Below are positions 19,320 to 58,145 of a stretch of DNA of 64,000 nt, one piece after another. The stretch's first letter is position 1. Each line of letters starts with the position of its first letter. A program made the position numbers and the translations under genes. This stretch comes from Isurus oxyrinchus (taxonomy: Eukaryota). The notes beneath the pieces are model-generated. The model saw only the letters and a list, made by a program, of their open reading frames with translations, searched no databases and was not told the origin of the DNA. The stretch spans positions 1,984,001-2,048,000 of the forward strand of contig JANJGN010000056.1 in assembly GCA_026770705.1 (NCBI GenBank), written 5' to 3'.

Positions 19320-19325
19320 TTTATT
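19320..19325 (-). terminator. Candidate polyadenylation signal of gene A
   Basis: AATAAA on the minus strand about 230 nt past the stop. The equivalent position in arm B also has AATAAA (52346-52351). Confidence 0.4.
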
Positions 19326-19554: not shown

Positions 19555-20408
19555 TTACTGCATTCCGCTCTTCAGCTCCTCCCTAAACCTAGCCTGTGTC
19601 AGCACACAAATGAATGCATTTGTGCAGCAACTGAGGTCCCCTAGCATGAATCCAACTGACTTAAGCTCATTTGCCTCAGAATGTGACGTGAGTGTTACAT
19701 GCAGAGAGATAATATATATAACAGGAGTTGTCCAGAGCAATATATAGCTGCCAGTTATACTGAAGAGTAAAATAATGGACTTTCTTCGGCTTTCAATTTC
19801 AGAGTCCTTGAGATGTTCTCCATTACTGCAACCGTGGAGACCTCTGCGAACTTTACTGGCTGCCAAAATACGTCTCACCGTCAAAACATTTAGCAACAAG
19901 ATTAGAATGAATGGAACACATGGGGTCAAGGTAAGGGTAAATAATTCAAATGCGGCCCACTCAGCAGAAATGAAAAATGTATATTTTGGGACACAACCAC
20001 GATTTACATTGTCCATTATATACACAGGTTCATATGCAAAGTACCATGGAATGTTTATCAAAAATCTCAAAACACTCACCACGGTTATGACAGCTACCGC
20101 TGTTGTTTCGGTGCAATATTTTTTTCGCAGCTTCTTACAACATATCGCCACAAAATGATCGAAGGTGAACACCACTGTTAACCACACAGAGGCTGATGTG
20201 ACTACATAAATCAGTGTTACCGATAGATGGCACACTGTGCCCATGGTCAAGAATAAAATAGGAAAATACATATCTAGCGTATTCTTCAGTATGACTTCAG
20301 CAAAAACAACCAGGAGATCTGACGCAGCAATGGCAATCATAAAGTGGGTAATACATTTGGAGAGGCCACACTTTCTTCTGGAAAGGATCACAATCACAAC
20401 AACATTAA
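19555..20408 (-). CDS. Gene A exon 2: GPR139/GPR142-like class A GPCR (TM1-TM7); the joined protein is 307 aa
   Basis: Open frame with seven hydrophobic segments and the motifs CGLSKC, AASDLL, SVWLTV.FTFDHFVAICC, PFILILLLN, RRKSIILL and LSCCTN. A pyrimidine-rich acceptor (ccctctcttacag) ends at 20409 and its phase 1 matches exon 1. Stop TAA at 19557-19555. Confidence 0.9.
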
Positions 20409-23400
20409 CTGTAAGAGAGGGATAGAGAGAGCAAGAGATAGACGACACAGATGAACATGATTAATTTCTTCCCGTTGCAGCACAGGACATTGCACTTGAC
20501 CAAAATATGCACAGACTGCTTTCCGAGGTTAGCATGTTCTAAATGTTATCTGGACCTAGTGAAAGTAGATAGAATAGGGAAACATCAATTTATGATTCGT
20601 CTTTTGAAAGGAACCTCTTCAACGTAAACTGGACAACTAATGATCAATAACGATTGAGATTGTTGAGGCCGAATGTGACCTGGACAATTTGAATGCAAAC
20701 AAACAGCTGGGCATCGTGAATATTAAAAGGTAAATGAGAGGTGTAAAGAGTCAATTAACTTGTGTTGGCACAATGTGAAGTGAGAAGTGAATGGGCAAAA
20801 TAGAATCTGGGCCATGTAGAGTTATACTCTGCAAGAGGTAGTGGTGCAATGCGTGTTGGGTGGTCTATAAATGTGAATACGTAATTGGAAGGATTACTGT
20901 GCTGCAGGACTTACAGCTTGAAGGTAAAACATTGCCCAGTGGCACGAACATACTCTGAACGCTTGCGACGGTAAAGATGGAATGATAAACACACAGGAAC
21001 ACGCAATGGTCACTGAGCTACAAAAAAAGACCAGCATAGATTCCCAGGGAGAAGTTTTATTCGGAGATAAGAGCTGATCAGTCATGTGTTTTAAGTCACA
21101 TTATGTAACGTGAGATTGATTTGCTGGCTGGGCATTGTGCACGATTATTTCAGGTGAATGCATCGCTAATGTATTGCAGAAAGAATGAAGCAACATTGGT
21201 ATGCAGAATGGGTGCAGTCAGTGCTGATCAAGAGGCCAGTTTATTAGCGGACTGGGAACGGAGATATTACAATGAGATTGAGTGGGCAATATCTATTGGC
21301 CATAGGGGTACATATCTTGCAAATCAAAGTGAATGAGCAATTCAAAGATGCGATTCTAGTGAGGTTATAACTACCGAGTAGACAGGACAGAGTTCCCATT
21401 ATTTGATCGGTTGCAGAACTAATCACTTTGTTGCCGTAAGGGCAGTAGGGAGTCGATTGTGTCTCAATGACAACATCCGTGATTTGAAAGGTGAAGCTTA
21501 AAATTGATTTTTTTGGGGGGCACCAAGTGCATAAAATTGCAATAATGATTGACTATGATGGGCACAAGGATTTGAGCCTGTAGACTAACATATGTTCCAA
21601 AAAGTGAAATTACGAATTGTCGATTACCTGCCAATAAAGATCTAACTCCTAATACACTCATGTTTAAATTAATATCGTCTACAGCTTGATTCACTTCAAA
21701 TTGGCCAGGCTCGTAAAACGCATGAACCTTTGCATTATTTGTTAAAATGCATATTTCTTTTTTTTTCAAAATGCAGGAACCTTTTCCGAGAATTAGCGAA
21801 GTTATTCAATGCTGCATTGTTATACAGAAGATTAACTTCAGTCATTTATACCGATTGCTGATCAAGTTAAAGGATCTATATAAGTCAAGCGAAATTGACG
21901 TGAGCCTCAGGTAATCACGGTTGCATTATGATTTCTGTTGTTTACTTACTAAAGTCCCATTTGCATTTTGAAGAAGAGGCTTTCTAAGTGAATATCACTG
22001 AACTAATGTGTAACTGCCAGGTATGTAATAACGTGATGTGCACTTTTATTAAATTATTTCCTGAATTTCAAAGCAAGTTAAATATCTCTAGCCTGAATTA
22101 TTATCAGAAGTAAATAATCGGCTCGCTGCTGAAATTTTGTTTGTAGTTCTGATGGTGATGCAAAAGGACAGGATGTCATGGCTCCGGCAACGGTGCAGAA
22201 CAGCTTTCCGACTGAAATCTCCAGTCAGATTCGGCAGGCACAGATTAGGGAATGGAAAATGCACATTCTCAAAATTAGGGGATGAGTAGATAGAGAGTTA
22301 TTTCAAGTACCAACTGGTTTCATGGCTATGCAACATGGTGTAGTCGGAAAGTAGATTTTTCGCGAACTTGAACTTAGGGAAACAACAATGCATTGAACAT
22401 CTATAAACGGGGTGGTGAAGTAACATTTTGCATCATATTATTTCAGTAAGTTGTCGCTTTATGTTTCAGATGAACTTTGAATGAAGTAAGGCCAATGAGT
22501 CGGATAAAGCTTTTTTAAAATTTTTGGATCTGATTAAAAGCTGGCAAGCTTTGACCACACAAACAAAGAAAATATCTATTTGCGTTACATACACAGCCCA
22601 GTTGGCAGCCTCCGATTCGCAAGTCTCTAACTCGAATGCAAGCGTCAAGCATTGAACGTCTTAATGGAGCTGTCAAAGCTAATCACAATCAGCCGTGAAA
22701 ACGCCAGGCAATGGATAAAAATTAAAGTTTGATTTTCCGTGAACCATGTAGGATTCACTGGAAAAGCTGGAAGCATTATTAATCAAAGCTAATTTCACAC
22801 AATTGCATCTTAAAATAAATGTCAAAAATGAAAATTGACCTTCATTTACCCGATAACTATTATGATTTGAGCAAATCTAATATATATATATATATTCCTA
22901 CAACGACATGAAATTAAACTGGGAGACATAATTATCCGTGTGCTATTGTGAATTATACAAAGACTGTTAGCCAATTTATCAGCACTTGAAACAGTACCGG
23001 CCAGCACTGTAAATAAGGAAACAGCTTAAAAACATTGTAACTGAAACAATTATATAATGAAGCAGCCAATATTTGAACTCATTAATTATCAAAACTACTA
23101 TCCAATAAATAATCAGTATACTTGCAGAATTTTCCTCCGAATTAAACGTTGAAATGCCCCAGGAATGAACCCACCCAAATATCTGCCCAATGAAATAGTG
23201 ACGTGTCCAAACCATTATCCACTACTTAGCTAACAAATTAAGTATACAGTCATCAAATATATTATCAACATTATTTCCTGCTAAATAAATTGGAGAAATG
23301 AACATGTATATATGCGACAGAATTACCCATTGCTCTCTGGAACTGCAATCCTCTTCTGACCTGTTAATGATTTGCTGTTTGGGAAAAGGAACATGCAGCA

Positions 23401-24849
23401 GGTGCAGTGCACTTTGAAAAATGTGCCTCTTGATGTCGTTACTACAAACACCCGAGTCTCAGGAACTGCGGAGTTTCCTCCACCGTCCCAACTTTAACAT
23501 CAAATCGCAAAGTAATTACAAGATAACAATTTTCTATCGCATCTTTTGCATGCAAAACAGTTCCTGAAGGCCTAATTCATTTCAGTGAATTTGTGAATGT
23601 TGTGGCGAACGCACCAGAGAGTGTGATCCACTGAATTGTGTTCGTGGTTATGGCACATTGCTGCAGGCTCCATAGCAGCAGTTACATTAGAAAAGTGAGA
23701 CAAATCCGTTGGTGCATTTTCAAAACGCAAATCGTGATTTAAAATCATAAAGAAATATTACATTAAGTAGACAGCGGCCTGGATTATTCAATTATCGGCA
23801 GCGTGAGATGGAGAAATGTAAAATTAGCCGTTTTCCTATTCACCCTCCCTTAGACCACCTCCCCTTCCACAATTCCTTTAAATTCCCAAGGGGAGGAGGC
23901 ATGGAGTGATGCGAAATGGGCTCCGCATCCAATCGGCAGTGAAAGCCTGAACATCGTGCGGCAGAATGCAATGCTGTGAACAGAAAGTCGTTATAACTGA
24001 AAGCTCAAGACCACCTGCTCTCAGAAACTGTTTTTCCAAAAATATTTTTCATTGTAAGTTCAGGCAAGAAACAAAAAAGTGAAAAGTAAACATGAACGCG
24101 CTGGCACGTTCCCCAGCACAATCTGTAGCCACATTTAATCATGGTCCCGGGGCCTCTGTTCCGCAGGATGGTTGTCTGATGGTAGGTGCTCAGGAACATT
24201 TTTTTTTCTCCCGTCTGGGCCACGGTTATTGCAAAGCACGAATCAAGAAATCATACCATTGTGTCGTTCACAAACTCAATAACTTGCTAATTAGGAAGTT
24301 TTAAAACGTGGGCCCACCCGTTCTACATCTGCAACTGGGAGAGTCTTGTACCTGACGTCATTATACCCGATGCATGTCATTGATCGTCGTGCGTATTCGG
24401 CATTTTTGAAGTGGGTGTAAGTTGGGGAGTGGGGGTTTTGGACGGTGAGGTGAAGGGGGTGCGATTTTCAGACGAAAATTCCAGCCAATCTTTTTGGTTA
24501 AATATGTAATATTCAGGAGTGAATTCGAAATATGCGTTCTCAGTTAGGGGCCAGTGTTCTCCGAAATAATCTACATTTAAACATGCATTTTGTAGTTAAT
24601 CTTTGTTGATACGGAAAATAGAAATAGCCAAAGCCACGATTTCAATAGCAAAAGGACATCAATATTCATAGATTCGTCATCATGCAAATTTTATTTCCTT
24701 TGATCATTTGTCAAGATTAGCACTTTTATTTCCGTTTTCTCTAACTCTTCCTGAAAATAAGGGTTTTCTAGTGCTGCAGTCCATGTGAAGCAGGTGCAGA
24801 CAAAACGCTGCGAGCGATTCATTTCCAGGTTTTTGATCCAGTGACAATA

Positions 24850-26540
24850 AAGGAACTGTAAGTCAGCTTGGTGCTTGACTCGGAAAGGATTTTGTAATTA
24901 ATAGTGTTCCCATGCCTCTTCTGCTGTTGCCCTTCCACGATTTTGAGGTCAATTGCACAAATGAAGGAACGTTGCTGACATCTGCCCTGTGTCCAAAACA
25001 GCAGCAAGCAAAGCTAACAACATGGCTTAACCTGGTGAATTTCAAGCCGGGGCTACTTGCAAGCAAAACAGCGTATTCAGCATGAGAAAGACAGGGCTCA
25101 TTGATCCACTACCAAATAACGATAGCTCAGCTCTGTAGTCCTGTCACAATCACCTTTAATGGTTGTGGAAAATTCTGCACCTCACTTGTTCTCCACCAAT
25201 ATCCCCATCGACAATGAATGTGGAGCGCAGCACACCAGTGCATATACATGGCTTAAGAATTTGCAGCCACATTCACCCTGAAGTGACGGGTAGATGGACT
25301 ATCCGGCCTCCTCTTACGGATGACAAGCATCACAGATGCCAGTCTTCATACGATGTGATTCTCAGCACTCGGATTTAAGGAATGACTGAAGGAACTGGAT
25401 GATGAAGAGGCTATGGGTCCGTTTAGATAATGCCAATAGTACGGTGGATCACTGCCCCTGAATAAGCCTTCCTATCGATGTTGGTATGGTGCATCTAAAC
25501 CTTTGGCATCTATGCTGAACTTTGAGAATTTTCACAGGTATGCCTATCCACAAATAATCACTACAAATCCAACCAATCTAAGAACAGCCCCATCAGCCTA
25601 CATTTCATCAGGATCAATGTGATGAAAAGCATCATAGAAAATGCGTTCAATCGCCAAATACTCAGCAGCAAACTGTTCACTGACGCTCACTTTTTGCTTC
25701 GTGCGAGCTCCAACTCTCGGTTCGGCCTTCCTCCAAACATGTACACAGGTGCTTCACTTATGAAATGAGGAGAGAGTGGCTGTGAATTATTACAGTACAT
25801 CAGTTATCACACTCTGGTATCAAGGATGGGTATGAGAATTGTGGTCAATAAGAATAAGGGGCAACTTCCCAACTGCCTGAACTCATACCAAGCAAAAAGG
25901 ATTATTTTTTCATTTTTATTTTCTTTTGCAGGTGCATCATCTCAGCCCCATGACATAACAGGATGGCAGACTGAGGGCAGTGTCCCGAGCCCACCCAACT
26001 TAAGCTGCTGCATCAATTATGTTCTCTCCATTTGAAACACAGTAGGAGGCTGGTGTAGTGGGGAGGGTGTGGGAAAGTGAGGGGAAGTTATATCCGCTGA
26101 AAATTGTTCAAAGTTCTGCATCGTTCACGACTCAACAGATGCTGATGAAATCCGTGCCCATGTGCATCAAGTCCTGGGCAACAGCCAGACTTGTGCTGAC
26201 AAATGACAAGTAATATTTGCGCCGCAAAATTGACAGGAAATGACCATCTGCACCAAACGAACATCCAACAAAATAACCTTGACATTTACTCGCCTTACCA
26301 TCGCTTAAGCCCCCTTTGACCAGCCATTGACAAGAATCTGTGACTCGAAGGGCAGGTCAAAATCTGAAAATGCAGTGGTTAGCAATGCAACTCCTGGCTC
26401 TCCAAAACCTTTCCTCCATCTAAAATGCACAAATCAGGAATGTGATGAGATATACTACACCTGTCTAGATGATTTACGCTCCAGTAGAATTCAAGGATAT
26501 TGACTTAACCCAGGACAAAGCAGAGTGCTTGACTTGCAAT
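24850..26540 (+). mobile_element. Decayed CR1/L2-clade LINE in the intron of gene A; mirror copy at ~44760-46450 on the minus strand
   Basis: Contains RT-like gggcagtgtcccgagcccacccaacttaagctgctgcatcaatta (GSVLGP...CINDL) and upstream RT sequence. Confidence 0.65.
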
Positions 26541-29077
26541 TATTCCATAAATTTAATTATTTCAGCTTTTTATCCTTATCTGAATAACTCATCTCCCTGC
26601 TTTTAAAGTTCATACGAATCATCAGCAAACATCTGAGTGAAATTATCTTATCTAAAACGTAATATATCCACCCAATTTCTCAGTACGCTCAATTCTATTA
26701 CTGCTTTCCTAAATATCACTTTGCACCACTTTCAGAATGCACCATTTTTTATATCCTTCAGTACACCTGGTACTTAAGTGACATCTCATGACATTATGTA
26801 ACACATGGGCAATGAATGTCCCCTTCTGCTGACCAGCTTCCGTTCACCTCAGCAGATGAATCAATGATCATCAATGGCCGACGTTTTAGGGAGAGATAAG
26901 AAAAAAATACTTTCCATCGGAGACCTGGAAGACTGTGAGCAAGAGAGGATCGGTAGCATCAATATTGTCCGACCTGGCAGAGTCATAAAGATAAATGCTA
27001 CACTAGGTCTTTGCAGGTGGTCAGGGAACCAACCAGGTGCAAAATTCTAAGTGAATTCGCTCCACAAACCTACCACCACAGCTGCATCAGTCCTCTTAGG
27101 AATTGATATGAAGGACCACCACACGTCCTTGTACAGAGGAATTCCGCCTTCACAATGGGGCTTCCCTCCATCGTATTGTGTGAGACAACCATTGTGCTAA
27201 ATTGGGTAGATTTCAACTGGATTAACAACTCAAAAGTGGGCATTCACGAGGCACAGTGGTCCAATGGCTGCAGCTGATATGGGCACAACCGTAATTTGTA
27301 ACACTAAGCCCAGTCTATCCCCCAACTCTGCAATTTTCATCTGGACTGTTTATGGTGATGTTTCTGATGCCAGTCAATCATTCTACTTTGCTCCTTTAGG
27401 GGAGCTCTGCGAGAAGGAATGTTCAACAAATTACTTATCACATTACGGGGATTTAGCTGGGATTGTCCTCTTTGGTGACAGTGACGAGAATAATCTTCGC
27501 CTTTCTGGTGCATTGGCAAATGAAAAGTGATTTCACTGAAGCATTCACCCTTTTTAAAAGTTTCGGTATTGTCGATATTGGATGGATCATTCCGCTGGCT
27601 GGTGTGTCTAAAAGTAGGAAAAGCAATATCAGAATAAGGGGACTGCATTTGAGATTATGATGAGAAATAATCTCATCACTGAGGGAGGGGTAAATGTTCG
27701 AAATTATGTACTGCAACCGCGGCGAATGGGCAGTCATTGAGTATGTTGAAGGTGCCGATGAACCAATTTCTCAGTATTAAGTGCATCCAAAAATATGAGA
27801 TAGTGCATGTAATATCGTGGAGACATAATTTCAGCCATGATAGACTTGAGTAGTGGAGCACAATCGTGCGGCCAAATGATCAATTTCTACTGGTATTTCC
27901 TGCGCTCTTATGTCCTTCTGTCAGCGCCACCATGTAACGTGGCAATTTGAGTTTTCCAAAGCCACGGGGGATTCGGACATTATTTAGTATCAATCCACTC
28001 CAATTCTCAATGTTAGTAAGTAAGGTTCAGAAGCAGGGTTTACAGCACCAGGAAGTGTAGGGCTGAAAATTGAAATCAGCAGAATAATGAGAACCATATA
28101 GCTACCCAGGGAGCATAGCGGTTCCAAAATCGGATCACTTATGGCTCAGTTAACAATCTACGTGCTGAGATATTTGTTTCAATACTTATGTCCGGCTTCA
28201 GTACTTGAGGACAAAAGTCTCAGCTAATGTGCCTTTGCCATAGTCAAGTTGTTCTGTACTATCGGATGTAATAACTTTCAGAACAGATGTCAAACCGTTT
28301 CACAGGGTAAACGTCAAAGATTCCATACCCCTATGTCGAAGATCGAGACTGTCGTGACCCCTTGTGTCCCGACCACTATTTACACCTCTATTAAAGCCCA
28401 CAATACGGAAAAATTGGTCATTGTCATCTTGCTGCTTGTGGAAGCTTCCCGACCACAAATTGCCTGTCCCCTTCAGTGACTACACTACATGGGAATTCAT
28501 TAAGGTGGTCGATAAATGAGGATGTAGAAATGCATGTATTTCAATAGACAAGTGACTAAGACATCGGAATGTCTTCAGCACACAGAGTAATCTGTTTCAG
28601 CCAGACTTCCAGATATTCTCTCTGTATACAGATTTGTAAAAGTATCGCTGTCGTAATAAGTATGTGATTTGACAGGGATTCAGTTCCTTTAAATATCGGT
28701 AAATGCATGAAAACCATTGGCAACGGCTTCAAGAATTTCAAGCAGAATTTTGCAGAATGCGAATTTGCTTCTGCACAGATTTTCACAGATTATGTTTTCT
28801 ACAAGTTCATACTCTGTTTGCACTTGATAATGATAATTATTGCAGACCCCACCCTGTTACATGACATTCCGTAAAGCAAGAATAAGGTGTCAGCAGTGGA
28901 GACCACGGAGCTTAAGATAGAGCAACAGGAAGAAATCTGTTAACGTTGTGGTTAAACATACATCCCTCCTTTGATGACTCCCCAACAGTACAGAAACAAA
29001 TCGATGAAATCGAACAGGCGTTTGAGAAGAACGTGAACATCCATTTATTCGGCTAAAGATTGCATTTAGGCTTTTAC

Positions 29078-29147
29078 CAGGAACACCAATGGCCGCGAGA
29101 ATAGGATAGTAAATGGCTTCTATCTGCCGAAGTATCAGTTCTCCCAT
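29078..29147 (-). CDS. Gene A exon 1: MGELILRQIEAIYYPILAAIGVP plus 1 nt
   Basis: ATG at 29147, 70 nt long, donor CCTG|gtaaaag. The YYPIL...GVP N-terminus is typical of the family. It has 59/70 nt identity to gene B exon 1. Intron 29077-20409 is 8669 bp. Confidence 0.9.
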
Positions 29148-31124
29148 CTTTATGTGGAGATGTCTTCCCTGCAGAGATGGATGCACAAGGTGGAATAAAG
29201 GTGTGAGCTGAAACGTAGAAATCCTCTTCCTCTTTAAATTCAATTGAGGGAAATAAGAGAAAAGTGTTAAAATCGCAGGAGATTTGGAAGGAGATGTCAC
29301 ATCAATTAATCTAGTCCACCAGGGTAAAACTAGCAGGACAGCATTCGTAGCAGGGAACAGACAAAAGCTGTTACCTTTCGCTAACATTAAGCCCTTTAGT
29401 TAACTAATCCAACCCACGGCCGCTACGATCCAGAAAGACAAAGGCAACAAGAACATGGGAACGAAATTAGCTGAACGTCCCTCTCCACGCCACTCATCGT
29501 CCTGGTGCAGAAAAATATCGCCGTTCCTTCAATGTCTCCGTATCAAATCAATGGAACCCGATCCCCCACCGCCCACACCACCCCCCTCCCCGCACCCCCC
29601 CCCCCCACCCCGCCACATCCACCGCCTCCACAAAAAAAATACCGTGGATGTAACTACACCATGAAGACTGCAGCAGCTCACCACCTACTTCACAAGGGGA
29701 GTTAGAGATGGGCAATAAATGCCAGCGTTACCCTAATCCATGAATGGAAAGAAGGATAGAAATTTATACACTTAGTCGGAGAGTATTTTAAACGTACATC
29801 GGTAAATGAGAGCTTCGAGAATGGGTTTGTAAATGGCCCGTATCTGATGAAGTACAGCCAATTATATTCTCAGTGAGAAGCGCGAACTCCTGTTGAAACA
29901 GATGCACTGAGCCTGTTGGGAAACATGAAATGTGGCAATCAGAGAAACTATTATGTTCACAAGAGATAAATCCCCATGAGCGTATTCCCCTAAAGAAATT
30001 ATTTAGTTTCAATCTTGAACAAACATGTTTCGTCAGTCGCTCACTTTCTGAAAGGAACCATTTCGAAGTGAAACGTCAAACATTGAAATGTTCGGTCAAT
30101 ACAATTGAAGGGGCTATATTTTAAAGAGCAACAGGTAGATCCCATAGTGGATAGTCACAGCGGGAAACGATTGACCCACAAAGCATTGTTGGTAATCAAA
30201 TCGTTACTAATTTAGATCAATATGATTCGTGGAAACTCAATCGGCCTGAACTGCCAGGAGAAGTAGTGGGAAAGTTCCGTATGTTAACCACCGTTTGGTG
30301 ATTCGGAACCCATTCTATATTCCAACCGAGCACATGTCTGATGGAGGTCTTTGTCATTTAATCTTCCAGGGGGCACTCATACGCTGCACAGATCTTCCCG
30401 TAGAGTGCTCTGGCAATGACAGTCCCATCAGTGACTTGAACTACATTCTGTGTCGTTGCACGTAATTTTGCACCATTCTGCCTGGAAAATATAAACGCAA
30501 CCATAGGACCAGGAACGTTTGTGTTGGTGGTAACCTGATGCGCAATAGAAAGTGTATGGAGAAGGCTTTTGTTTCCTCAACCAAAATATGTAAAAATAAT
30601 GCGTTCAAGTCAATCCGAAGCCACACATCCTCAGTAACGATTCCCCACGCCATGCTCACCCAATCACATACTCCATCCAGCTTGAAATGAATGAAAAACA
30701 ATGTTTTGAATAAAACAATGGCATGTCGAGAGTACATCGTTGTGAGTGTATTCCATGCTTAACATTTAACTCCTGGCCCTCAAATGTCTTCAGCAGATAA
30801 TCATTAGCAGATGGATGCAGTGATTATAATGTCCCAGAATCGAGGGCGCCTCCATCTTTGGTGTGGGGCGCATTTCAAGCACGCACCAAAAACATAATAG
30901 TTAAGATCAGTAGGTCATTTGGCCCATTGAGCCTGTTCTGCAAGTCGGAAAGCTCATGGTTTATCTGATGGTGGCCTCAGTCCCGCTCTCGTGCCTGCTC
31001 TCCCCCAACCAACGCCGTACACCGCCCCCGTCCGCCACCTCCGTCACATCACACACTTATATCCTCATGACCCTAGTCTCCAGTATTGGTCAATAAACTA
31101 TCCAACACAGCCATGAATATGTGA

Positions 31125-32165
31125 CAGCCCTGAACAGATGATCAGTGTCATTCGCTCTTTGATGATGGCGTCATAATCAGAGCGATGCAAAGTCACTGAT
31201 AAGTGTGAACTCGTTTCATGTCACTTGCGGCACCAAATAAGACTGTTTAACAGCTCCAGCTCTGGTTTTCATACATTTGTCGGTCATTCTCCAGGCATGC
31301 ATTCAAAGAGCTTGACAAAGGATTGCACATACATCTCAGGACCACAGGCAGCCTTTTCAAAGAACCAAAATTAAATCCTTGCACAGAGGTTAGTGGAAAG
31401 CTACAAGCGGATGCCTTATTCGCGGACCAATGCGCACTCATAGCTCAGGATCAGGAGACATTCAGCTGAATGCTGAGCGCTTTGCTGCAAACTCAGAATG
31501 TTTTCCATTGACAATATATCTGAGGATAGAGATGCAGTATCAAACCGTTGCTGTTCACGTGCTCCAAGATGCCACAGCCGCTTTGAACAATGCACTCCTC
31601 TGTTCTTTACAGTGCACTCCAAGGGCACTAACTGGATGGGCAAATTACCCATCGCCTGACATAAACAAGCTCGGCACTTGGCAGGCTTCACTCACTGACT
31701 TCTGCAAAGAAAACAAGGAATTTCCTTCAGATGGAAGATCAAGTCGTTCCAGGCAATGTTTTTTTATATCACTTTCATATCAGTGCGAAACTTGCATAAA
31801 CTTTTGGCCTCTTAGAAAGCTAATGAAAACTTTCCAACTTCGCTGTCCATGAACCATTTCCAACGGTTGCTGGCAGGACCAAATCGACAAAACCGATAAT
31901 CTTGTAAAGTGCTGCATGCCTGACATTGAAAATATGTTCATTAGAGCCCTGGTTGCCTGCGTTGGTCATGCGGTTCATCTGGAAAATGCCTACATAATAA
32001 TACGCCACACTCAGTGAGCACAGGAAGCTCCACTACAGAATGTCTGAAATCTCAAAGCCAAACTCAGAGATTGCAAGCTGGATCCCAGTACATGAGGTCC
32101 TGACACCACCTTGTTAAAAGCAACCTGGTGTGCCTGCACCATATGAAGCATACACTCTGCCACCC
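31125..32165 (+). mobile_element. RTE-clade LINE RT fragment, truncated at the inner duplication boundary
   Basis: Translations HAFKELDKGLHIHLRTTGSLF and DIQLNAERFAANSECFPLTI match RTE RT segments. Confidence 0.7.
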
Positions 32166-37911: not shown

Positions 37912-37919
37912 CTCCAAAA

Positions 37920-44188: not shown

Positions 44189-44490
44189 TTTATGCCAAAC
44201 AACAGAGCAGAAATTAAGGGTGAGGTGCAGGTGTTTCAGGAGGGATGGGAGGAAAAACTTTTTCCCCAGAGTTTGGTGACTGTCTCTAATGCGCTGCCTG
44301 CCAGTGTGGTAGAGGTGGATTGCCTCACAACCTTTAAAAATTAACTGGATGAGCATTTGGCACGTCAATACATTCAAGCCTATGGGTCAAGTTCTGGTAA
44401 ATGCGATTACGTAGTCAGAACAGGTGTTTCCCACATACCGGTGCAGATTAGAAGGGCCGAAGTTTCTCTTCTGCACTGTGATTCTGTGAT
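44189..44490 (+). mobile_element. Short 5'-truncated CR1 insertion specific to arm B
   Basis: CR1 3' end with tail ctgtgattctgtgat, flanked by TCGT at 44185-44188 and 44491-44494. It is absent from the paralogous site near 26880. Confidence 0.8.
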
Positions 44491-47301
44491 TCGTCCATGA
44501 ATGTTCATTCATTCATCATCTGAGGGGAACAGCAGGTGGTCAACATAAGGGAATATTCAGTGCCCATGTTTTACCTAATGCCATGAGGTGGAATATAAGT
44601 TTCACGTGCTCTTAGTGCTCTGAAAAATGGTGCTCACTGAACGGAGACGCAGAGCAAAATGGTATTTAGGAAAGCAACAAAGGAATTGCCCGTTTTAGAT
44701 CAATTTATTTTCCTCAGGTGGTGGTTGATGGTTTTGATGAACGTTAAAATCAGTAAGAATAATTATTCAGTGAAGATAAACAGCTTGAATCATTAAAGCT
44801 AAGCACTGGTTATCAATCAAGCAGTCTGCTTTGCCGTGGATATGTTCAATGTTGTTGAATGTTATGGAAGCAGAACTCATCCAGAAAACAGTTGTTATTC
44901 CATTATATTCGTGAATTGCGCATTGAAGATGGAGTGAATGTTTTGCAGAGTCAGGCGGGTATGTCCACGCCACAGAATTCCCAGCTCCTGACCTGCGCTT
45001 CTAGTCACAGTTTCTAGTCAATGGTTTTTCTGTGGATGTTCAAAATGGAGAATAAAACGATGCTGATAAAATTAAATATAATTTGTTGGACACTCTTTTT
45101 TCGTAGGTGGTCATTACCTCTCAGTTGTGTGGGGCCAATATGACTTGTTAGTTTTCAACAGAAGCCTGGATATTGCCAGGTCTTGGTGTACATGGGCAAG
45201 ATTTCTTCAGCATCACGAATGGTTTTGAACTTTGAAAAATCTTCAGCGGACACTACCGCCAACCCTTCGTCCACCACAAAACTTCCTCTGGGTATATGTT
45301 GCAAGAAGTTAATTGATGAAGCATCTCAAGGTAGTTTGGTTCAGGACACTGCCCGTAGGATCTCGTGCAGTGCTTTCATCGGGATGAGGTGATTCACCTG
45401 AGAAACAAAACAAAAAAAAATATTCTTTGTGATAGGTATGACAGCAATCAATGGAGATGCTTCCCATTATTTTTATTGACCCCAATACTGATATATCTCC
45501 ATGATGCCACTGCATGTCAAATGTTGTCTTGATTTAAATGACAGCCGCTCTCCAATCACATCGTGAGTTCAGCACTTTTGACCATGTTTGGTTTAAGGCC
45601 GAACCAAGAGCTGGAGCTCGTACGAAGCAGAAAATGGTCGCCCGTGAGGAGGTTACTCACTACTACGTGGTGATTGAAAGCAATGCCCATGACCGATTCC
45701 ATCACTTTGTTCATGATGAAGAGTAGGGGATGAGGGGATAAATATTGGTTGGATTTGACAAGTTTTGTTTTTGTGGATAGTCCCAGCTGTGTGACTGCTC
45801 ACATTTTCGCGTGGATGCCAGTGTTTTAGCTGTCATATACCAGGTTGTCTAGGTCTCCCATACAATTGCCGGTATCTGACAGGACCCATGGTCTCTGCAT
45901 CATCCAGTTCCTTCTGGCATTCCTTTAGATCACGTGTTCTAAATCACATTAGCTCAAAACTGGCATCTGTGATGCTCTCATCCTCAGAACGGGGACAGGA
46001 TAATTCACCCACCCTTCACGTCAGTCTGAATATGGCAGAAAGTTCTTGAGCCATGTGTATGCACTGATGTGCTGCGCCCCACAATCATTACCGATATGGA
46101 TATTGGTGGGGTGTCCACCACCCTTGATTCGTTGATTTGTCCAACATCATTCAAGATGGCATGAGCAGAACTTCAGAGCTAAGTTAACGTTATTTGCTGG
46201 TTGGATCAATTAACCCTGTCAATCACATTCTGCATCCACTGCTCTGCATGCAAGTCGTCCTGTCTCGCAATTCACCAGGTCAAAGCCCCGTTGTTAGGTA
46301 TGATTGCAGCAACTCCTGATATATGACAGGTGTCGACAAAGGTGACTCGTTCGAGCACTTCACTTCGAAAGCCTGGAACAATAAGTGCAGAAGTGGCATG
46401 GGAACACTCTTATTGCAAAATCCTTTCCAAGTCACACCCCATACTGACTCCGAGATACATTAGTGTTCCCTGAATGCCACTGGATCAAACGCCTGTAAAT
46501 CCATCACTCGTAACACTGTGTGTGCAACCACATCACATGGACAGCAAGAAGAACAATATCTGCGCTCGGAAAAAAGGCTCATCCTACCAATGATTCCCAC
46601 AAAAAAAGAATTGCTGCATAATGCAGAATCTATGAATGTTTTTGTCATTTGATATGAAAGGACGTTCCTGTTTGTTTACTTTGTAGGACTACACTAAGGC
46701 TAACTACAACATGCATGTTTTAATTCAAATCCTTTCACAGTACGCTGGTCCCTAACTGAGGATGTATATCTTCAATTCGTTCCTCAATACCTAAATCTGT
46801 AGCCAAAACGATGGGCTGGAAATTTCTCCCCAAGTCGCACCTCAAACCTACACACTCACACTCCCCATCACTCCTCACACCCACACCACCCACTATCCCC
46901 ACTCCCCCACATCACCCACACCCATCAAAAACGTCAAATCTGCACGAATATCAAATACCTGCATCGGGTATAATGACATCACGTTCTTAAGTATCCCCAG
47001 TTGCAGATGGAGAACGGGCGGGTCAACATTTCTCAAGTTACTTATTAACAGGGTATTGAGCTTGTCAGCGAACCAATGGTATGTCCTCCTGTTTGGTGCA
47101 TTGCATTTGCTGTGGCTCAGATGAGAAAAGTAAGTGTTTTTGTGCAGCTATTGTGAGACGGGCAAAGCCCGGTAGGTAACTCCTGCCTCCGGGAGCATGA
47201 TCGAATGTAGCAGCAGATTGTGCCGGAGAAGATGGCTGCATCTTCAAGCTTTATTTCTCATTTTTTCGTTTCTTGCCTGAGCATTCACTGAAAAGTATTT
47301 T

Positions 47302-47425
47302 TCAAAAATATTTCTAGGTTTTAGGTTGTTTTGAGCTTGTAGCCATAGCGACTCTCTCTTCACAGCATTACACTCTGCTGCATGAGGTCCAGGCGTTCAC
47401 TGCCGATTGGATGCGTACACCTTTT
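47302..47425 (+). repeat. ~125-bp inverted repeat, copy 1 (intron of gene B)
   Basis: The reverse complement matches 48421-48545, including a long exact core ccaatcggcagtgaacgcctggacctcatgcagcagagtgtaatgctgtgaa. Confidence 0.9.
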
Positions 47426-48420
47426 GCATTTTTCATTGCCTCTTGCCCGGAATTCTATGGATTGACGAGGTGGAGGCCGTCTAAGGGAGGGTGAGTGAGA
47501 CAAGAGGGAGCAGACCACTCATTTTGCTTTTACCCAAGCTCACAATGCCGAAAAACGTAAAATCCAGTGTGAAACCTACTTAATGTAACGTTGCTTTATG
47601 AACCTAAATCACTTTTAGCGTTTCTAACCTGCAGCAGGGGGACTAGTCCGGCCTTTCTACTGTTTCTGTTGCTAACGAGTCTGCAGCAATGTGTGATAAC
47701 CAAAAACACCCTTCAGTGGATCTCACTCTGTATTGTAATAGCCAGAACATTATCAACGTCCCTGAAATGAACTGGAGCTTTAGGATCTGCTTTGCATACA
47801 AACGATGCCGCAGAAAATTGTTATTGTGTGCTTACATTACGAATGAAATATCGCTCTTGAACAGATATGGAGTTAGGAAAGTGGCAGAACCTCCATCGCT
47901 CTGTGGTTCATCAGACTGGGGTATTTACGGAAATTACACCAAGAGGCACATTAATCAAAGTGCACTGCCCCTGCTCTTGGTTTCTTTTCAAAAACAGCAT
48001 ATCAGTTACAGGTGAGAAGCAGATTGCATTTGCAGAGAGCAATTCCACAGCATATTTACATGCTTATTTCTCTAGTAAATTTATCAGGGGCTTTTGTGGA
48101 AAGTATACCTGATATCTGTACAGTTAGTTTGACAAATAAAATACTGCATAATGGTTTGGATAATGCACGATTAAATTAGTTAGAACATTGTGTGGTTCAT
48201 TCCTGGAGCATTTCAATGTTTAATTTGCAGGAAAATTCTGGAAACATATTGATAATGTATTGGATATCAGTTTTAATAATTAATTTGTTCAACGGTTGAC
48301 TGCCTCAATGTATAATTGTGTAAATTACTGCCTTTTTCCTATTTTTAACTGTTTCCTTACAGCTCTGGCCAGTACAGGTTCAGGTGCTGAAAGTCTGGTT
48401 AACCATCTTTGTATAATTCA

Positions 48421-48545
48421 AAAAATGGTGTCCGCGTCCAATCGGCAGTGAACGCCTGGACCTCATGCAGCAGAGTGTAATGCTGTGAACAGAGAGTCGG
48501 AATGGCCACAAGCTCAAAACAACCTACTCCTAGAAATATTTTTGA
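48421..48545 (-). repeat. ~125-bp inverted repeat, copy 2 (insertion relative to arm A)
   Basis: Matches copy 1. The paralogous site in arm A (~22935-22950) has only about a dozen unrelated nt here. Confidence 0.9.
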
Positions 48546-51250
48546 TATTTATGACTCAGAGTGAACTTACTGACATTGTAGGGATATAAATGCTAGAGTT
48601 GCTCAGGGAATAATAGGTATAGGATAAATGAAGGTAAACCTTAATTTTTGACGTATCTTTTGGGCTTTAATTTAGTCAAAATGGCTTTAATTTCTTCATG
48701 TCTCCCCCATTTTCCAGTGCAGCCTACATAGTCAACAGAAAATCAAACTTCACCTTATATACATTCCCTGGCGTCTTCAAGGCTCTTTGACAGTTCCCAT
48801 CAAGTCAATCAATGTTTTTCGCTTTCATCCAGTTAGAACTTTGTGAATCGGTGGCAGCAGTTGCCAACTGGGCTGTGTATGTCACCTTATAAACATCAAT
48901 TTTTTTATGTGTGTTCAGAGCTTGCCAACTTACGAGTTGATACAAAAATGTAAAATTCTGTTTATCTGTATCCGAATAATACCACTTACGTTTCTGAAAG
49001 TTCATGTATATAATTAACCTACATCTTCAGGAATTAATATGATCCAAAATGTTCATTCAGCACCCCATTTATATTCATTGCTCCATTGCATTGATATGTT
49101 CCTACAAACAAGATTGCAAAATCTACACTTTCATTCTGCTCCAGGTTGCAAAGCGTTGAAAGCAGTTGGTACTTCCATGAAATCTCTTTTCACTCATCCC
49201 TTGATTGCGAGGATATGCATGTTCTATTCCTTAATCTGGGCATCCAGAGTCTGACTGGATATTTCAACCGAAAAGCTATTCTGTACCCTTGCAAGAGCCA
49301 AGAAATCCTCTCCCGCACCATAGGCATCAGCACCACCAATTTCAGAAGCAAAACAATTACTTATTTTGGGTATTAATTACGACTTGAGTTATTTAAATTG
49401 CTTTGAAATGCTGATAAAAATAAATTAACTTGTGCATTCAATTAGTAAATGTATGGTAGCAACAAATTGGTTCATTGGGAATCACTGAGAAACTCCATTC
49501 TTCAAAATTCAACGGAGTTCTATTATGTAAACAACCGAAACATTGATGCAGGCACAATTATCTGAGGCTCACGCCGATTTCGCTTGATTTATAAAGATGA
49601 TTGAATTTAACCAGTATTTACTAGAAATGATTCAATTTAATCTTCAATATATTAACACAACATTGAATTAGTTAGCGAATTCACAAAAAATGTTCTTGCA
49701 TTTTGAAAAAGAAGTAATCATTTTACTAAATATTGCTAATAATCAAGGATATGATGATCCGAAACAATTTAAAATAAAATTTGCTGCAAGGTATTATAAT
49801 GTAACCATGCATGTGTTAGGAGATAGATCATTATCATGAAGTAATCGACACTTCATTGTTTTCCTCCTCTAATCATATATTAGACCTACAACAATCTACC
49901 TAGGCAAATCGGTGGGCCCCTCATGGTCCATGTCGACCTGAAACTTTTGCACTTGGTGTGCTGCAAGGGTCAGTGTTCAGCTTCACATTTCAAATCATTT
50001 CTCACGGATACTGTGAATGACACGCAAGTGACTCCTTGAAGCCTTTTCGGAAACAAGGTTCTTTGATCTACAGCCGATCAATCAATGGGAACGCTCTCCT
50101 GTCACCTCAGAATCGATAGTTGATTTTAACCTCATTGGAATCACATCTTCGAATTGCTGACTCGCTCCACTTTAATACCAATGTGCCTTGCATCACTGTG
50201 ATTCCTATTGTCCCTGCATTTTGCGACATGCATTCAATGCACTTTACATCTAGTCCGTCCAAAAAGAAGCGTGGTCCTGCACAATACCCGCTCTGCATTC
50301 CCATTGGCCAATAAATATTGTTCACTTAATCTGATAGCAATGGCGCCGTTCCCATTCGGCCATTAAACCGCCCCCTTGATCAGCACCAAATATACCCAGT
50401 CGGCAAAGTAATGTTGCTTCAGTTTTTTCCGCAATGAATTAGCGATGCATTCACCTGACCTGCGCCTTCACAATGCCCCGTCTGCATATTAATCTTACAT
50501 TACTGAGCCTGCCTTAAAACACCTGACTTATCAGCCCTCATTCCCTACCACAACGTTTCACTGCGAATCTGCATAAAAATTTCACCATGTTTTGATTCTC
50601 ACTGGACCGGATCTGTGAAGACCCTTGAGTAAACCTTTATTCGGCCTCGTCTATGCTAGTGTTTCTTTGCAGCTCAGTGACCATTCTAACGTGATCTGTG
50701 CAACTACTATTCCATCTTTGCACTCCCAAGCGTTAGGAGTATGCCCATGCTGCTGGGCAGTACTTTACCTTCGAGCTGTCAGTCCTGTGTCACAGCAACC
50801 CTTTCAAATACTTATCACATCCATAAACCACGCAGCACACATTGCACCACTACCTCTTTCAGAGTATAACCCTACTTAGCCCACATTCCATTTTGCGTCT
50901 TCATTTCCCAATTGATATTGCACCTTCACACATGAATTGTCGCTTTATACCTCCCATTTGCTATTTAAAGTTCGACATGCACTGCCGTTTTTGTACGTTC
51001 AAATTGTCCGGATCACATTCTCCCTCAAAAAGCTCAATCATTCTTGCACAGTAGTTGCCTAGTTTAAATTGACGATGTTCCTATCAAAAGAGGAATGAAC
51101 GGTTCCCTCTCCACATTTAGTACATGCTACTCTCGGGAACAGGCTGTGCATGTTTGGGTCAAATGCATGTGCCTTTTCGATAACTGCAAGAGAAGTTGCC
51201 TTGTTCATCTCTGACTTCTATCTCCTTCTCTCTCTATCCCTCTATTACAG

Positions 51251-52155
51251 GGAATGTTCTTGCGATTGTGATCCTTTCCAGAAGAAAGTGTGGTCTCTCC
51301 AAATGCATTACACACTACATGATTGCAATGGCAGCGGCTGATGTCCTGTTTATTTGTACTGCAGTTATACTGAAGGAGATGCTGAATATTTATTTTCCGG
51401 GTTCATTCTTGACCATGAGCACGGTATGCCAGCTAACTGAGACATGGATTTATGTAGCCACATCAGCCTCTGTCTGGTTGACATTGGTGTTCACCTTCGA
51501 TCGTTTTGTGGCGATATGTTGTCAGGAACTGAGAAAAAAATATTGCACAGTGGCAACAGGCATAGTTGTCATATCAGTAGTGGGTGTTTTGAGTTGTTTG
51601 ACAAACATTCCATGGTATTTTGCTTATGAACCTGCATATATATTTGACAATGTACCTCACGGTTGCATCCTAAAACAAGCATTTTTCAATTATGCTGAAT
51701 GGGCTGCATTTGATTGGTTTATGCTCACTTTGACCCCATTTGTTCCATTCATTTCAATTTTGTTGCTAAATGTTTTGACGGTGAGACGTATTTTAGCCGC
51801 CAGTAGAGTTCGCAGGGGTCTCCGCGGTTGCTGCAATGGAGAGCATCACAATGATCCAGAGATTGAAAGCCGAAGAAAGTCCATAATTTTACTCTTCAGT
51901 ATAACCGGCAGTTTTTTATTGTTCTGGGCAACTCCAGTTGCATATATTTTCTCTCTGCGTATAACAATCATTTCATCTTCTGGCAAAAATGAAATTGAGT
52001 CATTGGGATTCATGCTTGGGGCCCTCAGTTGCTGCACAAATACGTTCATTTATGTGCTGACACTGTCTAGGTTTAGGGAGGAGCTGAGGAATGGAATGCA
52101 GTACCTTTTGAAATGGTGCGTACAATTAGTCATATTACAGCTGAAAGCCAATTAA
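51251..52155 (+). CDS. Gene B exon 2: intact GPR139/GPR142-like class A GPCR; the joined protein is 324 aa
   Basis: Acceptor ctctctatccctctattacag ends at 51250, phase 1. Motifs GN (TM1), AAADVL, C3.25, FTFDRFVAICC, the ECL2 cysteine, FW..P, NTFIY and helix 8 RFREEL are all present. Stop TAA at 52153-52155. Confidence 0.95.
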
Positions 52156-52310
52156 CATATGCAAGAGGACATAAAAAATGTGCCTGAAGGGACTCACATT
52201 AGCAAAATACGTGAAGCAATGTATGGCCACTCTGTATAAAGTTATATCCCTGCTAAAATTATTCCTTTACATTATTAGCCCAAATTGAACTCCTTTTCAC
52301 TGTACACTGT

Positions 52311-52351
52311 AATAAATGGTGGATTTGAGGCGTGATGATATTAATAATAAA
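52311..52351 (+). terminator. Candidate polyadenylation signals of gene B
   Basis: AATAAA at 52311-52316 and 52346-52351. Confidence 0.45.
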
Positions 52352-53769
52352 AATAATACTGAACTGCCCGTGTTATAATGGCAGGGTTTGACAGGAGCGA
52401 ATGTGATTCCAGATTCTGAAAACATTGAGCTCATTATACAGTCGTTCTGATCAACAAGAGAACACCACAAACATCACCAGCTGGAACGTAATAACTCCAA
52501 CAAGAGTAACATAGAAAAACATCACAAATACCCTTCAATGTCTCTCTGGGTCAAATACCATATAGGGGGGTTTTGAAAACAGGTTTCATGAAACCTGGCT
52601 CCCCCCAAATGTCCGACTGCTGCATAATGAGTTGCTACTCAGAGTTCCCTATAACTCACATGATTAAAACAAGGAACGCCTGGCAATCACGTGTTTTGTA
52701 AATGACCGAGCAATGACGCAATTGATCACATGGTACATTTTATCACATATTCCCACGATCTTTCGGACTTAGAGACGGTTCCAGATCTTAACTTCGGATT
52801 TCCCTACGATTTATTTGATAGCTTGCATAGCGCAAACTTAATCATTCACTATCACAGGTTCTGCCTCCTCCCAACATGCTTATTCATAACACTCTCTGGT
52901 TCATGTTTTCTGGTCCTTTCAAACACACGGCCACCAAGTGCTTGTTATCACAATTCACAGATGTTGTGGCGTCTGACAATTATTAACTTGACGTCCACTC
53001 TTCAGAATAACGAGTGAAGTTTCAGCCAGATATCCGCACCAATTCCCAGCTATGAAATGTCCACTCGCTCATGGCCCTACCATAAACATCTTCCTTTGTA
53101 TTTCTACGCAGTTTGAATGTGAACTAACATAATGTTATACTTGTCTTCGCATATTCTTATCATTTATTCTCATTTATGTTACTAAGCACAGTTCGTAGAT
53201 GCAACCATATACAGGTTACAGCATGGAGCAGATAATTTGACCCGCCCTTTCCTTATTGGCTCTCTGAAGGCGAAGATGCAGACGGCAACCACTCCTCCCC
53301 CTTAGGCAAGCTGTCTGGGTCATTCGGTTTTCTCACATACTAACACAAAATCACGTTGACCTTTCCTAGTTGAGCAGTTTGATCATCTGGGAAAATGGTT
53401 GGCCAGAAAAACGGCCAATTAAAATGTCAAATATACACTGGCGTTAGATACAAACCTACACCCGCTGTCAAGGAATGAATTAACATTAAAAAATTGATTC
53501 GATCATGGCATGAGGGGCATAGCTGGCAAGAAAAGAATTTATTGCCAAACGCTAATATCTCTTACAGCAACGTGAACGTGAACCGCCTTTCCGAGCAGCT
53601 ACAGTGAATGTGATATATTCGCAGACGATGCCTAGGGCCTGAATTACTTAAAAAACACACTGACCGCTAGCCTAGAACTCTTTTCTAAATAGTTCCAGTG
53701 ACTTCTTGGTACCTTCACTTTTTAAATATCCACCCTCGCTGCTGAGCTCCCTTTCCTTTCAGTTCCTGA

Positions 53770-54745
53770 GGAAACCTGAGTTCCTCAGGGAAATGAACGA
53801 GGCTCAACCATGTTTAGCTCCCTCTTCAAAGATCTTCCCTCCATTGCAAAGTCAGGATTGGGGATGTTCGCTGATGTTGCACGATGTTCAACACCACTCC
53901 GGATTCCTGAGATAGTGAGGCATCCCTTGGCCAAATGCAGCATGTTCTAGACAATATTCAGGCTTTGGCTGACAACTGGCAAACATTTCACACCATACAA
54001 ATGCCAGCCAATGACCGTCTCCAAAAGAGATAATCTACCAACGACTGCTAACGTTCAATGGCATTAACGAATTTCCCTCTATCAGCAGTTTTCACTCACC
54101 GGAAACTGAACTGGATTAGGCATATAAACACCATGTCCAATAATCCACTTCAGAGGCCAGGAATCCTGCGGAGACTAACACACTTCCTGGCTGCATAAGT
54201 CCTATCCACCACCTTCAAGGCAAAACATAGGATTGTGATGCTATTCTCTCCACAGGCCCAGATGCATGCAGCCCCAACAAAACTCAAGAAGCTTTACAGC
54301 ATCAAGCAGAAAGCAGCCGATTGATTGACGCCACGTCGAGACACAATGAGTCCCTCCACAGCTGATGAACAATGGTAGCAATTTGTGCCTTCTACAACAA
54401 ACACTTCAGCAATTCACCAAGGCTCCTTAGGCCTCACTTTCCAGCAGCAGGTTACCGAAAACACAAAAACCATGAACACCCCTTCAGCCCACACGCCACC
54501 CACCCCTCCCCCCACTTCAGCTCCACCCCTTACCAAAATACTCACAAACCTGCTTTGGAAGTACATTGCTGTTCCTTCTCGGTCTAAATCTTGGAAATCG
54601 GTCCCTTTCAGCACTGTGGGTGTACGGGCACAGCAGGGACTGCTGCAGTTCAAGCATGCAGCTCTCCAGCATGTTCACAAGGTTCACTACTGATTTGCAA
54701 GAAATGCTGTGCCAGCGATTGAGGCCAAAATCCCTTAAATGAATA
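53770..54745 (+). mobile_element. CR1/L2-clade LINE 3' fragment (mirror of 17000-17925)
   Basis: gagttcctcaggg...gtcaggattggggatgttcgctgatg encodes GVPQG...FAD. Confidence 0.75.
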
Positions 54746-56745: not shown

Positions 56746-57253
56746 TCAGCAATAAATTGTCCACTGATGTGCAGTTTGGAGTCTGCCAGGATCCCTCAGC
56801 TCCTGACCTAATTTCAAACCTGGGGGCAAATTTGCGCAAATGAGGTACACTCAAGAGCTGAGGTGAGAGTGACCGCTGAAGGTATCAAGGCATGAATTTA
56901 CCGTTCTTTCACTGCTGGCCTTGGCCCACTCTGCCATGACTATATTCCCACATCCAGGCTGCTGCTTTTCGGTGGCCAAGAAAGGAATTGTCAGCAGAAT
57001 GCTGGCATTTATCAAATCGCCCAAAAAACTGTAATCCTCATGATTTATTGCATCACAATGTTATTTAATATTTGACAATCGATGTCATAGTAAGGTTATC
57101 GCTGCCTAACACACATTGAGATGGAACTGGCAAAACCATTCGTGATTTACAAATGTATTACTGGAAGCAGTAGCACAATTGGAAGTCATCAAGCAAACTG
57201 GTGACTTTCCTCCTGTCTGATTATAATTGTTCTGCCGTTTCTCTGCCTTGCAG

Positions 57254-58145
57254 TTAACTTGGTGGCGCCGGGAGTTCTGCCGCGTGGTAAGTCTGGGCTC
57301 TCGAAATGTATCAGTCGCTACCTGGTGGCCATGACAGGGGCGCATCGACTCGTCATTATCCTCGACATGGCATTACGACTCATTCCAATTGTTTTCCAGA
57401 AGCAGCTTCTTTTTCCTGAAGTCCATTCCTGTGTGTAATATACATACCGTTCTGATTCATGCGGCTACTAAATGTTGTGTCTGGTTCACTCTATCGTTCA
57501 CTTTTAAATCCATTTGCAGTCATCTGTTGTCCGAAACTGAAATGTAAATATCGCACCGGAGAAACTGCGACTGTCGCCCTGGGAACAGTGACTGGTCTGC
57601 GCTGCAGAAAGAACATGTGGTGGTATTTTATGGTAACAGGCCTGTGCTGAGGAACGTCCCCTGGTTTTATTGGGTACACGGACGTGTTTGGTTGCCGCGT
57701 TTCTGGGCAGCAGTTGAGTTCATACCTGAAATTGTAAACACCGTAGTACCATTTATCCTGATTCTGGTGCTTATTGTTTGCACTGTCAGGCACATTTTAT
57801 TGAGCAGCTGAGCTAGGAAGAGACTCAGGCCTCACAAGAGTGGGAAGACCCCCAGAGACCTAGGAATGTAAAGTCGGAAGAAAACCATTATTATACTCAT
57901 GGCACTTTCAGCGAATTCCAATCTGAATGGTCAGTGCTAATGCTTTATTCTATACGAACCGTATGGTATATTTGGGGTATTGATCTCTAATGACAGAAGT
58001 GCTTGTGGTGGAACTGGGTTTAATGCTGCAGCATCTTACTCCCTGCACAGACACCTACCATCACCCAGGCTAGGTTCAGATCCTAGTAAAAGAATGTGTT
58101 CCAACATTCCTTTAATCTAATTGTTCTGTTCGCTAAACAATTAAG
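57254..58145 (+). pseudogene. GPR139-like GPCR pseudogene (exon 2) of a different subfamily
   Basis: Acceptor ttctctgccttgcag, phase 1. Pieces read VNLVAPGVLPRGKSGLSKCISRYLVAM, FLKSIPVCNIHTVLIHAATKCCVWFT, NPFAVICCPKLKCKYRT, VPFILILVLIVCTVRHILLSS*ARKRLR...M*SRKKTIIIL and ELGLMLQHL. There are at least three frameshifts plus in-frame stops (e.g. TGA 57809-57811). Confidence 0.9.

Follow-up and report, generated by a model that had tools for sequence, protein, structure and literature searches.

A 64,000-nt stretch of the Isurus oxyrinchus genome (contig JANJGN010000056.1, positions 1,984,001 to 2,048,000 of the forward strand), hereafter the window, contains four loci of one G protein-coupled receptor (GPCR) family: two genes, A and B, a stub covering transmembrane helices (TM) 1-3, and a frameshifted pseudogene. 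Judging by sequence comparison, the loci are members of an elasmobranch-wide multigene class A GPCR family derived from the GPR139/RFamide-Wamide receptor clade. The window cluster forms a minor offshoot of this family, partly in decay; the family numbers dozens of members or more per genome, a scale underestimated in the preliminary description of the window. Across the family the pocket is variable and the signalling core is fixed, and this pattern, as read from the alignments, is the signature of a ligand-diversifying repertoire. We suggest that the family may most likely be a repertoire of chemosensory receptors, tuned to peptides and amino-acid-like cues in the water or the gut lumen, and assign to this reading a probability of about 0.4.

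The elasmobranch family

With protein B as the query, 2,042 clusters out of 4,077 candidates matched at E<=1e-10, the total taking in non-elasmobranch relatives and alternative gene models, and the best 120 of these 2,042 were taken as the family matches. All 120 come from elasmobranchs (12 shark and ray species, with 48 matches from Heptranchias and 44 from Heterodontus), mostly under the name "probable GPR139". No chimaera protein is present among the named matches of this set. The identity to the 120 proteins is 49-72%, with two chimeric models at 48%. Within the same set, the 44 Heterodontus matches are distributed over 18 contigs, 16 of them lying on a single contig. A small, single-copy-like family would have refuted the preliminary description; with no fewer than 44-48 clusters in each genome of two species, this outcome is removed.

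Two trees were constructed, with 93 and 39 family rows; they lack an independent root, and group X served to orient them merely for drawing. The family and two groups of apparently single-copy relatives, X and Y (see below), fall on three distinct sides (support 95 for the family, 100 for X and 99 for Y). The nearest neighbours of A and B are proteins of the basking and white sharks (99-100), joined next by Heterodontus P0011 and P0012 (99-100), B being nested in a lamniform clade inside the elasmobranch expansion. Subfamilies in the trees hold orthologue-like members of distant sharks and rays, and the pseudogene at 57254-58140 sits within a different subfamily (support 100).

The family is large and clustered, and both its births (by segmental duplication) and its deaths (by decay) are seen in the window. 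Clustered duplication and pseudogenisation, which had been named as features of chemoreceptor repertoires, are confirmed by the inverted duplication carrying A and B, the decaying copies, and the 16 Heterodontus matches on one contig.

Variable pocket and conserved core

The variability of amino acid positions was compared in an alignment of 116 of the 120 family matches (four chimeric models, P0004, P0008, P0010 and P0058, were left out before counting), 86 of 120 group X matches (34 unnamed or scaffold-named rows out), and 21 group Y proteins. At 30 pocket positions, the family has a heterogeneity of 0.60, against 0.28 for X and 0.05 for Y, and for inner TM positions the corresponding values are 0.25, 0.33 and 0.21. 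The mean identity within the family and within X is similar (0.63 and 0.62).

The same trend was observed in a test requiring no list of pocket positions, in which TM positions fixed in X and Y alike were scored for hypervariability in the family. Ten of the 15 outer positions, and none of the 26 inner ones, are hypervariable (p 1.4e-5), and the 10/15 versus 0/26 result recurs separately in Heptranchias (44 sequences), Heterodontus (44) and the other species (28). Hypervariable pocket sites change chemical class, being acidic, basic, aromatic or aliphatic in different members. When ten pocket residues, selected after their variability had been seen, are read as a string, the 109 family sequences yield 92 distinct strings, the 81 X sequences yield 19, and the 21 Y sequences share a single one. 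Ligand-side divergence, claimed in the preliminary description, is therefore found family-wide; it is not found between A and B (24 outer and 24 inner changes specific to B, 12 and 13 specific to A).

Sixty-nine columns are at least 95% conserved family-wide, including D2.50, the DRF motif, N7.49 and Y7.53. In addition, W5.35 and W6.48 are invariant, and position 5.39 is acidic in 95 of 116 relatives; speculatively, the acidic residue together with the two Trp could form a shared anchor for an amino group. Most family members have Thr in positions 6.50 and 7.50, where prolines are usual.

Relation to GPR139 and to genes X and Y

In the family profile search, a newt protein of group Y scores 225 bits, a coelacanth protein of group X scores 201 bits, and human GPR139 scores 77 bits. 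Gene Y is represented by newt P0216, frogs, a caecilian and sturgeon P0408 (amphibians and sturgeon contribute 21 of 25 matches), while gene X is represented by coelacanth P0228, catshark P0271, ray-finned fish, amphibians, reptiles and three sharks. The mean identity is 0.30 between the family and X, 0.31 between the family and Y, and 0.24 between X and Y.

Gene Y, the highest-scoring relative outside the family, shares with it the short N-terminus, W6.48 and the acidic residue in position 5.39, but its pocket is invariant in 21 sequences. Gene X resembles the family in its short, sequon-poor N-terminus, Thr6.50 and N5.58, but its pocket is fixed, and sharks keep their own 1:1-like X outside the expansion. 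As no shark 1:1 member of Y is seen among the 25 matches, the shark expansion may be a co-orthologue of Y. Three GPR139-related sets of fish and coelacanth sequences were named GPR210 by Rinne et al. 2019, in a text where the word "shark" does not occur (PMC6504862), and gene X is perhaps one GPR210 subtype. X and Y can be regarded as two conserved orphan GPCRs with fixed pockets, mislabelled as GPR139, with no mammal or bird among the matches listed. Two group X models carry the name of TMEM183A isoforms, which suggests that X neighbours that gene.

The median position of residue 1.50 is 26-27 in X and Y, and an N-terminal sequon is present in two of 73 X proteins, none of 18 Y proteins and two of 65 family members. 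The short sequon-free N-terminus, considered in the preliminary description as a chemosensory cue, is thus common to the single-copy genes, ancestral, and carries no weight as a sign of chemosensation.

The reading of B as a shark GPR139 or GPR142 orthologue and an aromatic amino-acid receptor seems to us to have practically no chance of being correct. Human GPR139 (7VUG, 9M42) is the best match among PDB sequences (E 9e-9 for B and 1e-20 for the profile) and the nearest characterised receptor, with its 77 bits against 52 bits for the next one. Human GPR139 and GPR142 also have W3.41, Asn5.58, W6.48 and the lack of Pro in position 7.50 in common with the family. We rejected B as a GPR139 orthologue, since X and Y are far closer and there is a multitude of clusters per genome; the lamniform position of B argues in the same direction, in line with the preliminary description, which had favoured a separate receptor system. 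Moreover, of the GPR139 agonist-site residues F3x33, H5x43, W6x48 and N7x38 (PMC5430874), mapped here by eye, B has Tyr, Met, Trp and Phe, respectively, so that the TM5 His and the TM7 Asn, two of the four mutagenesis-defined pocket residues, are lost. Among the 116 family members, these sites are occupied by Phe or Tyr in 57, His in 38, Trp in 116 and Asn in 27. Human GPR139 is a conserved gene, whereas the shark family is a large repertoire, and Cys3.25 of the family is absent from human GPR139 in the alignment.

Loci of the window

Six-frame translation, tblastn and the family profile, applied across the window, yield the four loci of the family, B, A, the stub and the pseudogene (Table 1). 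Their states agree with the preliminary description (B intact, A damaged in its motifs, a TM1-TM3 stub, and a frameshifted pseudogene of another subfamily), as seen from splicing, motifs, profile and tree. A polypyrimidine-AG acceptor lies two bases 5' of the Asn1.50 codon (phase 1) in all four loci, so the shared acceptor reported earlier is also reproduced. In human GPR139 the coding intron lies at roughly this position, and the shared acceptor would then be ancestral. The tiny first exon and the short sequon-free N-terminus were likewise found again in both A and B, and no N-x-S/T sequon occurs anywhere in the two proteins.

Table 1. Coordinates of family loci and related features in the window.
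Feature	Position	Strand	Comment
Tail and 3' flank of probable fifth member	1..1942	+	last five codons and stop at 1-18; stop at 16-18
Duplication arm with gene A	17326..31800	-	self-blastn, 68-75% identity
Gene A exon 2	19555..20408	-	open up to premature TAA, helix 8
Gene A exon 1	29078..29147	-	70 nt; phase-1 GT donor
Dead exon-1 copy upstream of A	29798..29867	-	ATG to ATA, in-frame stop, GT donor in register
Exon-2 stub, TM1-TM3	37598..37911	+	degenerate; stop, then TATC microsatellite
Duplication arm with gene B	39282..54386	+	self-blastn, 68-75% identity
Dead exon-1 copy upstream of B	41259..41328	+	ATG to ATA, GT donor in register
Gene B exon 1	41917..41986	+	70 nt; N-terminus and outer TM1; phase-1 GT donor
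Gene B exon 2	51251..52155	+	TM1 Asn to stop; Pfam 7tm_1 E 2.6e-19
Pseudogene exon 2	57254..58140	+	frameshifted, three frames, multiple stops; nearest Heptranchias P0010

After removal of a 9,264-nt intron, B is an uninterrupted class A GPCR of 324 amino acids, scoring 70 bits with 7tm_1 (Pfam cut-off 30.5). It has this domain, seven helices and the class A motifs N1.50, D2.50, D/E-R3.50, P5.50 and N7.49/Y7.53; A lacks R3.50 and Y7.53. Spliced A (intron of 8,669 nt) encodes 307 amino acids. In exon 1, 19 of 23 residues of B and 22 of 23 residues of A match the start of basking-shark P0001, and the near-identity of the latter provides independent support for the exon-1 assignment. Gene A carries R3.50H (CGT to CAT), F6.44Y and Y7.53C in columns nearly invariant across the 116 relatives, and has a TAA in helix 8 at the site of TAC in B. 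Hence A is probably a dying copy, either a young pseudogene or a weak receptor, and B is probably a working but relaxed family member; B is intact yet atypical.

The structural model of B exon 2 (exon 1 not included) has seven helices and a pLDDT (predicted local distance difference test) of 73. Its fold matches are generic class A peptide receptors, the best with Z 22.6 and a root-mean-square deviation of 3.3 over 246 aligned residues; with this model as the query, GPR139 is outside the 50 listed fold matches in both searches, an absence that carries no information at this pLDDT and with exon 1 missing.

A and B are the two arms of a single inverted segmental duplication of about 15 kb. The binned identity of the arms is 0.68-0.76 outside exon 2 and 0.82 within it. 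With dS of 0.37 and dN of 0.15, dN/dS is 0.41 (95% bootstrap interval 0.29-0.59), and A/B are under purifying selection, but loose. A seven-residue deletion in the third extracellular loop (ECL3) and a Pro in position 6.51 are common to A, B and the basking-shark protein, unlike most of the family.

The other two loci are dead copies. The stub aligns with positions 13-117 of the family profile (E 7.6e-13); its segment 37603-37908 (+) stays open for about 100 codons despite the loss of D2.50, C3.25 and DRF, probably by chance. First exons of the stub and of the pseudogene were not found by tblastn or by a weight matrix, the latter built on 72 relatives and possibly missing other subfamilies.

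Each complete gene is preceded, 660-720 nt upstream, by a dead exon-1 copy, matching B exon 1 in 46 of 76 nt on the A side and in 43 of 76 nt on the B side, compared to a background mean of 19 (sd 3.8) and 36 for the best unrelated segment. An acceptor-like TTTCAG is located about 60 nt 5' of the ATG in both A and B, and, given the kept donor, the dead copy might act as an exon of the 5' untranslated region. At the window start, 13-1942 is 64% identical to the 3' end and flank of B, and 249-1856 is 65% identical to the flank of A (self-blastn), while bases 1-18 translate to KLFKS followed by a stop, resembling family C-termini. This third copy of the 3' flank and the C-terminus-like peptide indicate that a fifth member probably ends here, its body lying just before the window, and that the cluster probably runs past the window edge.

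Possible function and alternatives

The family grows through segmental duplication and sheds copies through decay, as the window shows, with the G-protein side held fixed across paralogues and the pocket-facing residues switching chemical class. From a fixed signalling side combined with a switching pocket, one would expect the ligand to differ from paralogue to paralogue and the downstream pathway to be common. Each paralogue would then bind its own external peptide or amino-acid-like cue and act via a shared G protein, either in olfactory microvillous neurons or in chemosensory cells dispersed through gill, skin, mouth or gut. A wider version is possible but rather doubtful, namely that sharks and rays own a further chemoreceptor family, larger than the V2R repertoire and sparsely expressed in olfactory or other chemosensory cells, which arose, in parallel to nematode srw, from a GPR139-related gene that is single-copy or lost in bony vertebrates.

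Receptors of this clade are known to take aromatic amino acids, and peptides with an aromatic end, as ligands (PMC8557429, PMC8514136, PMC12208981), and a "probable GPR139" transcript is enriched in a chemosensory organ of a snail (PMC10638732). The nematode srw putative chemoreceptors arose from a related neuropeptide-receptor lineage; srw, like the shark family, is large and clustered and evolves by birth and death; it stems from FMRFamide/myosuppressin-type neuropeptide receptors, and a role in detecting peptides of the environment has been proposed for it (PMC2576165). The two expansions differ in being independent, and the function of srw is itself a proposal. A Pfam Srw (7TM_GPCR_Srw) match is listed for neither A nor B at E<=0.001; Srw is a secondary match in a few group X proteins, and Srw-bearing clusters occur among Atlas look-alikes. 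As in the shark family, OR, TAAR, V1R/ORA and V2R/OlfC genes form clustered paralogues with pseudogenes and a variable pocket on a conserved signalling core. The shark family differs in its ancestry and in the coding intron in TM1. Exon 2 of A and B matches only 7tm_1 at E<=0.001, with no OR, TAAR, V1R, V2R or T2R model, and none of these five is present among the family or PDB relatives listed.

Several observations weigh against a chemosensory repertoire. A diversified pocket would be just as typical of immune or irritant sensors (MRGPRs, formyl-peptide receptors). The 30 pocket positions follow generic class A numbering, and the TM6-ECL3-TM7 region is gapped near B. The 116 relatives were picked by similarity to B, 88 of them come from two species, and the set favours annotated, intact genes. 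The lack of outer bias in the changes of A and B (p 0.43 for B) has been mentioned above; moreover, at the 69 near-invariant columns A has seven departures and B six, while 90 of 116 relatives have none or one and only one relative has six or more. By these departures and the unbiased changes, the window cluster looks relaxed, though the family does not. In the catshark, the 50 most specific genes of a brain-plus-olfactory library include no GPCR, a weak point, as V2Rs are missing from them too (PMC11979771), and olfactory neurons have been described as uniformly Go/TRPC2 microvillous, with V2Rs dominating (PMC10116579). These catshark studies are limited to the four classical families and therefore speak neither for nor against a role in olfaction (PMC11979771, PMC10116579).

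The main rival reading, which we consider unlikely, is an immune or barrier-surveillance repertoire, in which the receptors would recognise microbial or damage peptides on granulocytes, mast-like cells or epithelia, taking the role played in bony vertebrates by MRGPR/MAS-type and formyl-peptide receptors. Birth and death and the variable pocket on a conserved core fit it equally well, and cartilaginous fishes are reported to lack MAS1 and its relatives (PMC8455134), but the ancestry of the clade is in neuropeptide and amino-acid receptors rather than in chemoattractant receptors. Less probable still are receptors of testis, oviducal gland or brain for endogenous or conspecific peptides, with a part in reproduction, the identity of neurons or neuroendocrine control. 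Such receptors are usually near 1:1 (PMC2576165), as X and Y are, and the 92 pocket strings in 109 sequences, again at sites picked after their variability was seen, would demand an equal expansion of ligands. On the other hand, GPR139 is a brain receptor (PMC5430874), protostome relatives bind neuropeptides (PMC8557429), in sharks, expression of OR and V2R genes is frequent in the testis and further non-sensory organs (PMC11979771), and the best structural matches of the B model are peptide receptors.

Largely non-adaptive proliferation, also quite improbable in our view, would explain the cluster by segmental duplication in DNA rich in long interspersed nuclear elements (LINEs) and by drift under relaxed constraint, with pocket variation reflecting lost ligand constraint. 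The window agrees with it: three of the four complete-enough loci are damaged or dead, a reverse-transcriptase fragment is nearby, and the loose dN/dS, the unbiased changes and the departures of A and B at conserved columns are as expected. The wider family speaks against it by its 69 conserved columns and the prevalence of relatives with no more than one departure, in a sample of annotated open models tilted to intact genes, and by the orthologue-like members that distant sharks and rays have within subfamilies.

Context and significance

The proteins already carry an automatic name in NCBI and UniRef and are not new as sequences. No description of the expansion was found in the literature searched, though most subscription papers were outside the search and another name may have been used. 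In particular, the expansion is not described in the main texts of PMC10620051, PMC8455134 and PMC12294341, and there is no GPR139 entry in the supplements of PMC8455134 and PMC7677710 and in most of that of PMC11589584.

Shark genomes have been described as GPCR-poor (PMC8455134), and the olfactory families of the catshark are small, with 8 OR or OR-like, 3 ORA, 3 TAAR, 2 TARL and about 32-34 V2R genes (PMC11979771, PMC10116579). The keen smell of sharks is set against these few dozen recognised olfactory receptor genes (PMC11979771, PMC10116579), and the family offers itself directly as a candidate for the capacity that is missing or, alternatively, for a system of immune sensors not yet recognised. 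If true, a further chemoreceptor family would overturn the view of a very small elasmobranch chemoreceptor repertoire. The four window loci are unremarkable by themselves; it is the family that bears on this open question. The label "probable GPR139" hides the family and misleads those who use shark "GPR139" as an orthologue.

Other sequence content of the window

Twelve other open reading frames of the window were compared with Pfam, yielding one reverse-transcriptase fragment only (RVT_1 at 5345-5617), and the window showed no recognisable unrelated gene; Rfam gave no match in it. LINE-like fragments are located at 4794-7435 (-), 33855-34187 (-), 14964-15425 (+) and 56706-56873 (+). The last two match spurious extensions of some database family models, which therefore probably include repeat DNA. 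Among the non-coding repeats, there are a direct one (56022-56187 and 56583-56745, 83% identity) and an inverted one (47302-47425 and 48423-48545, 92%).

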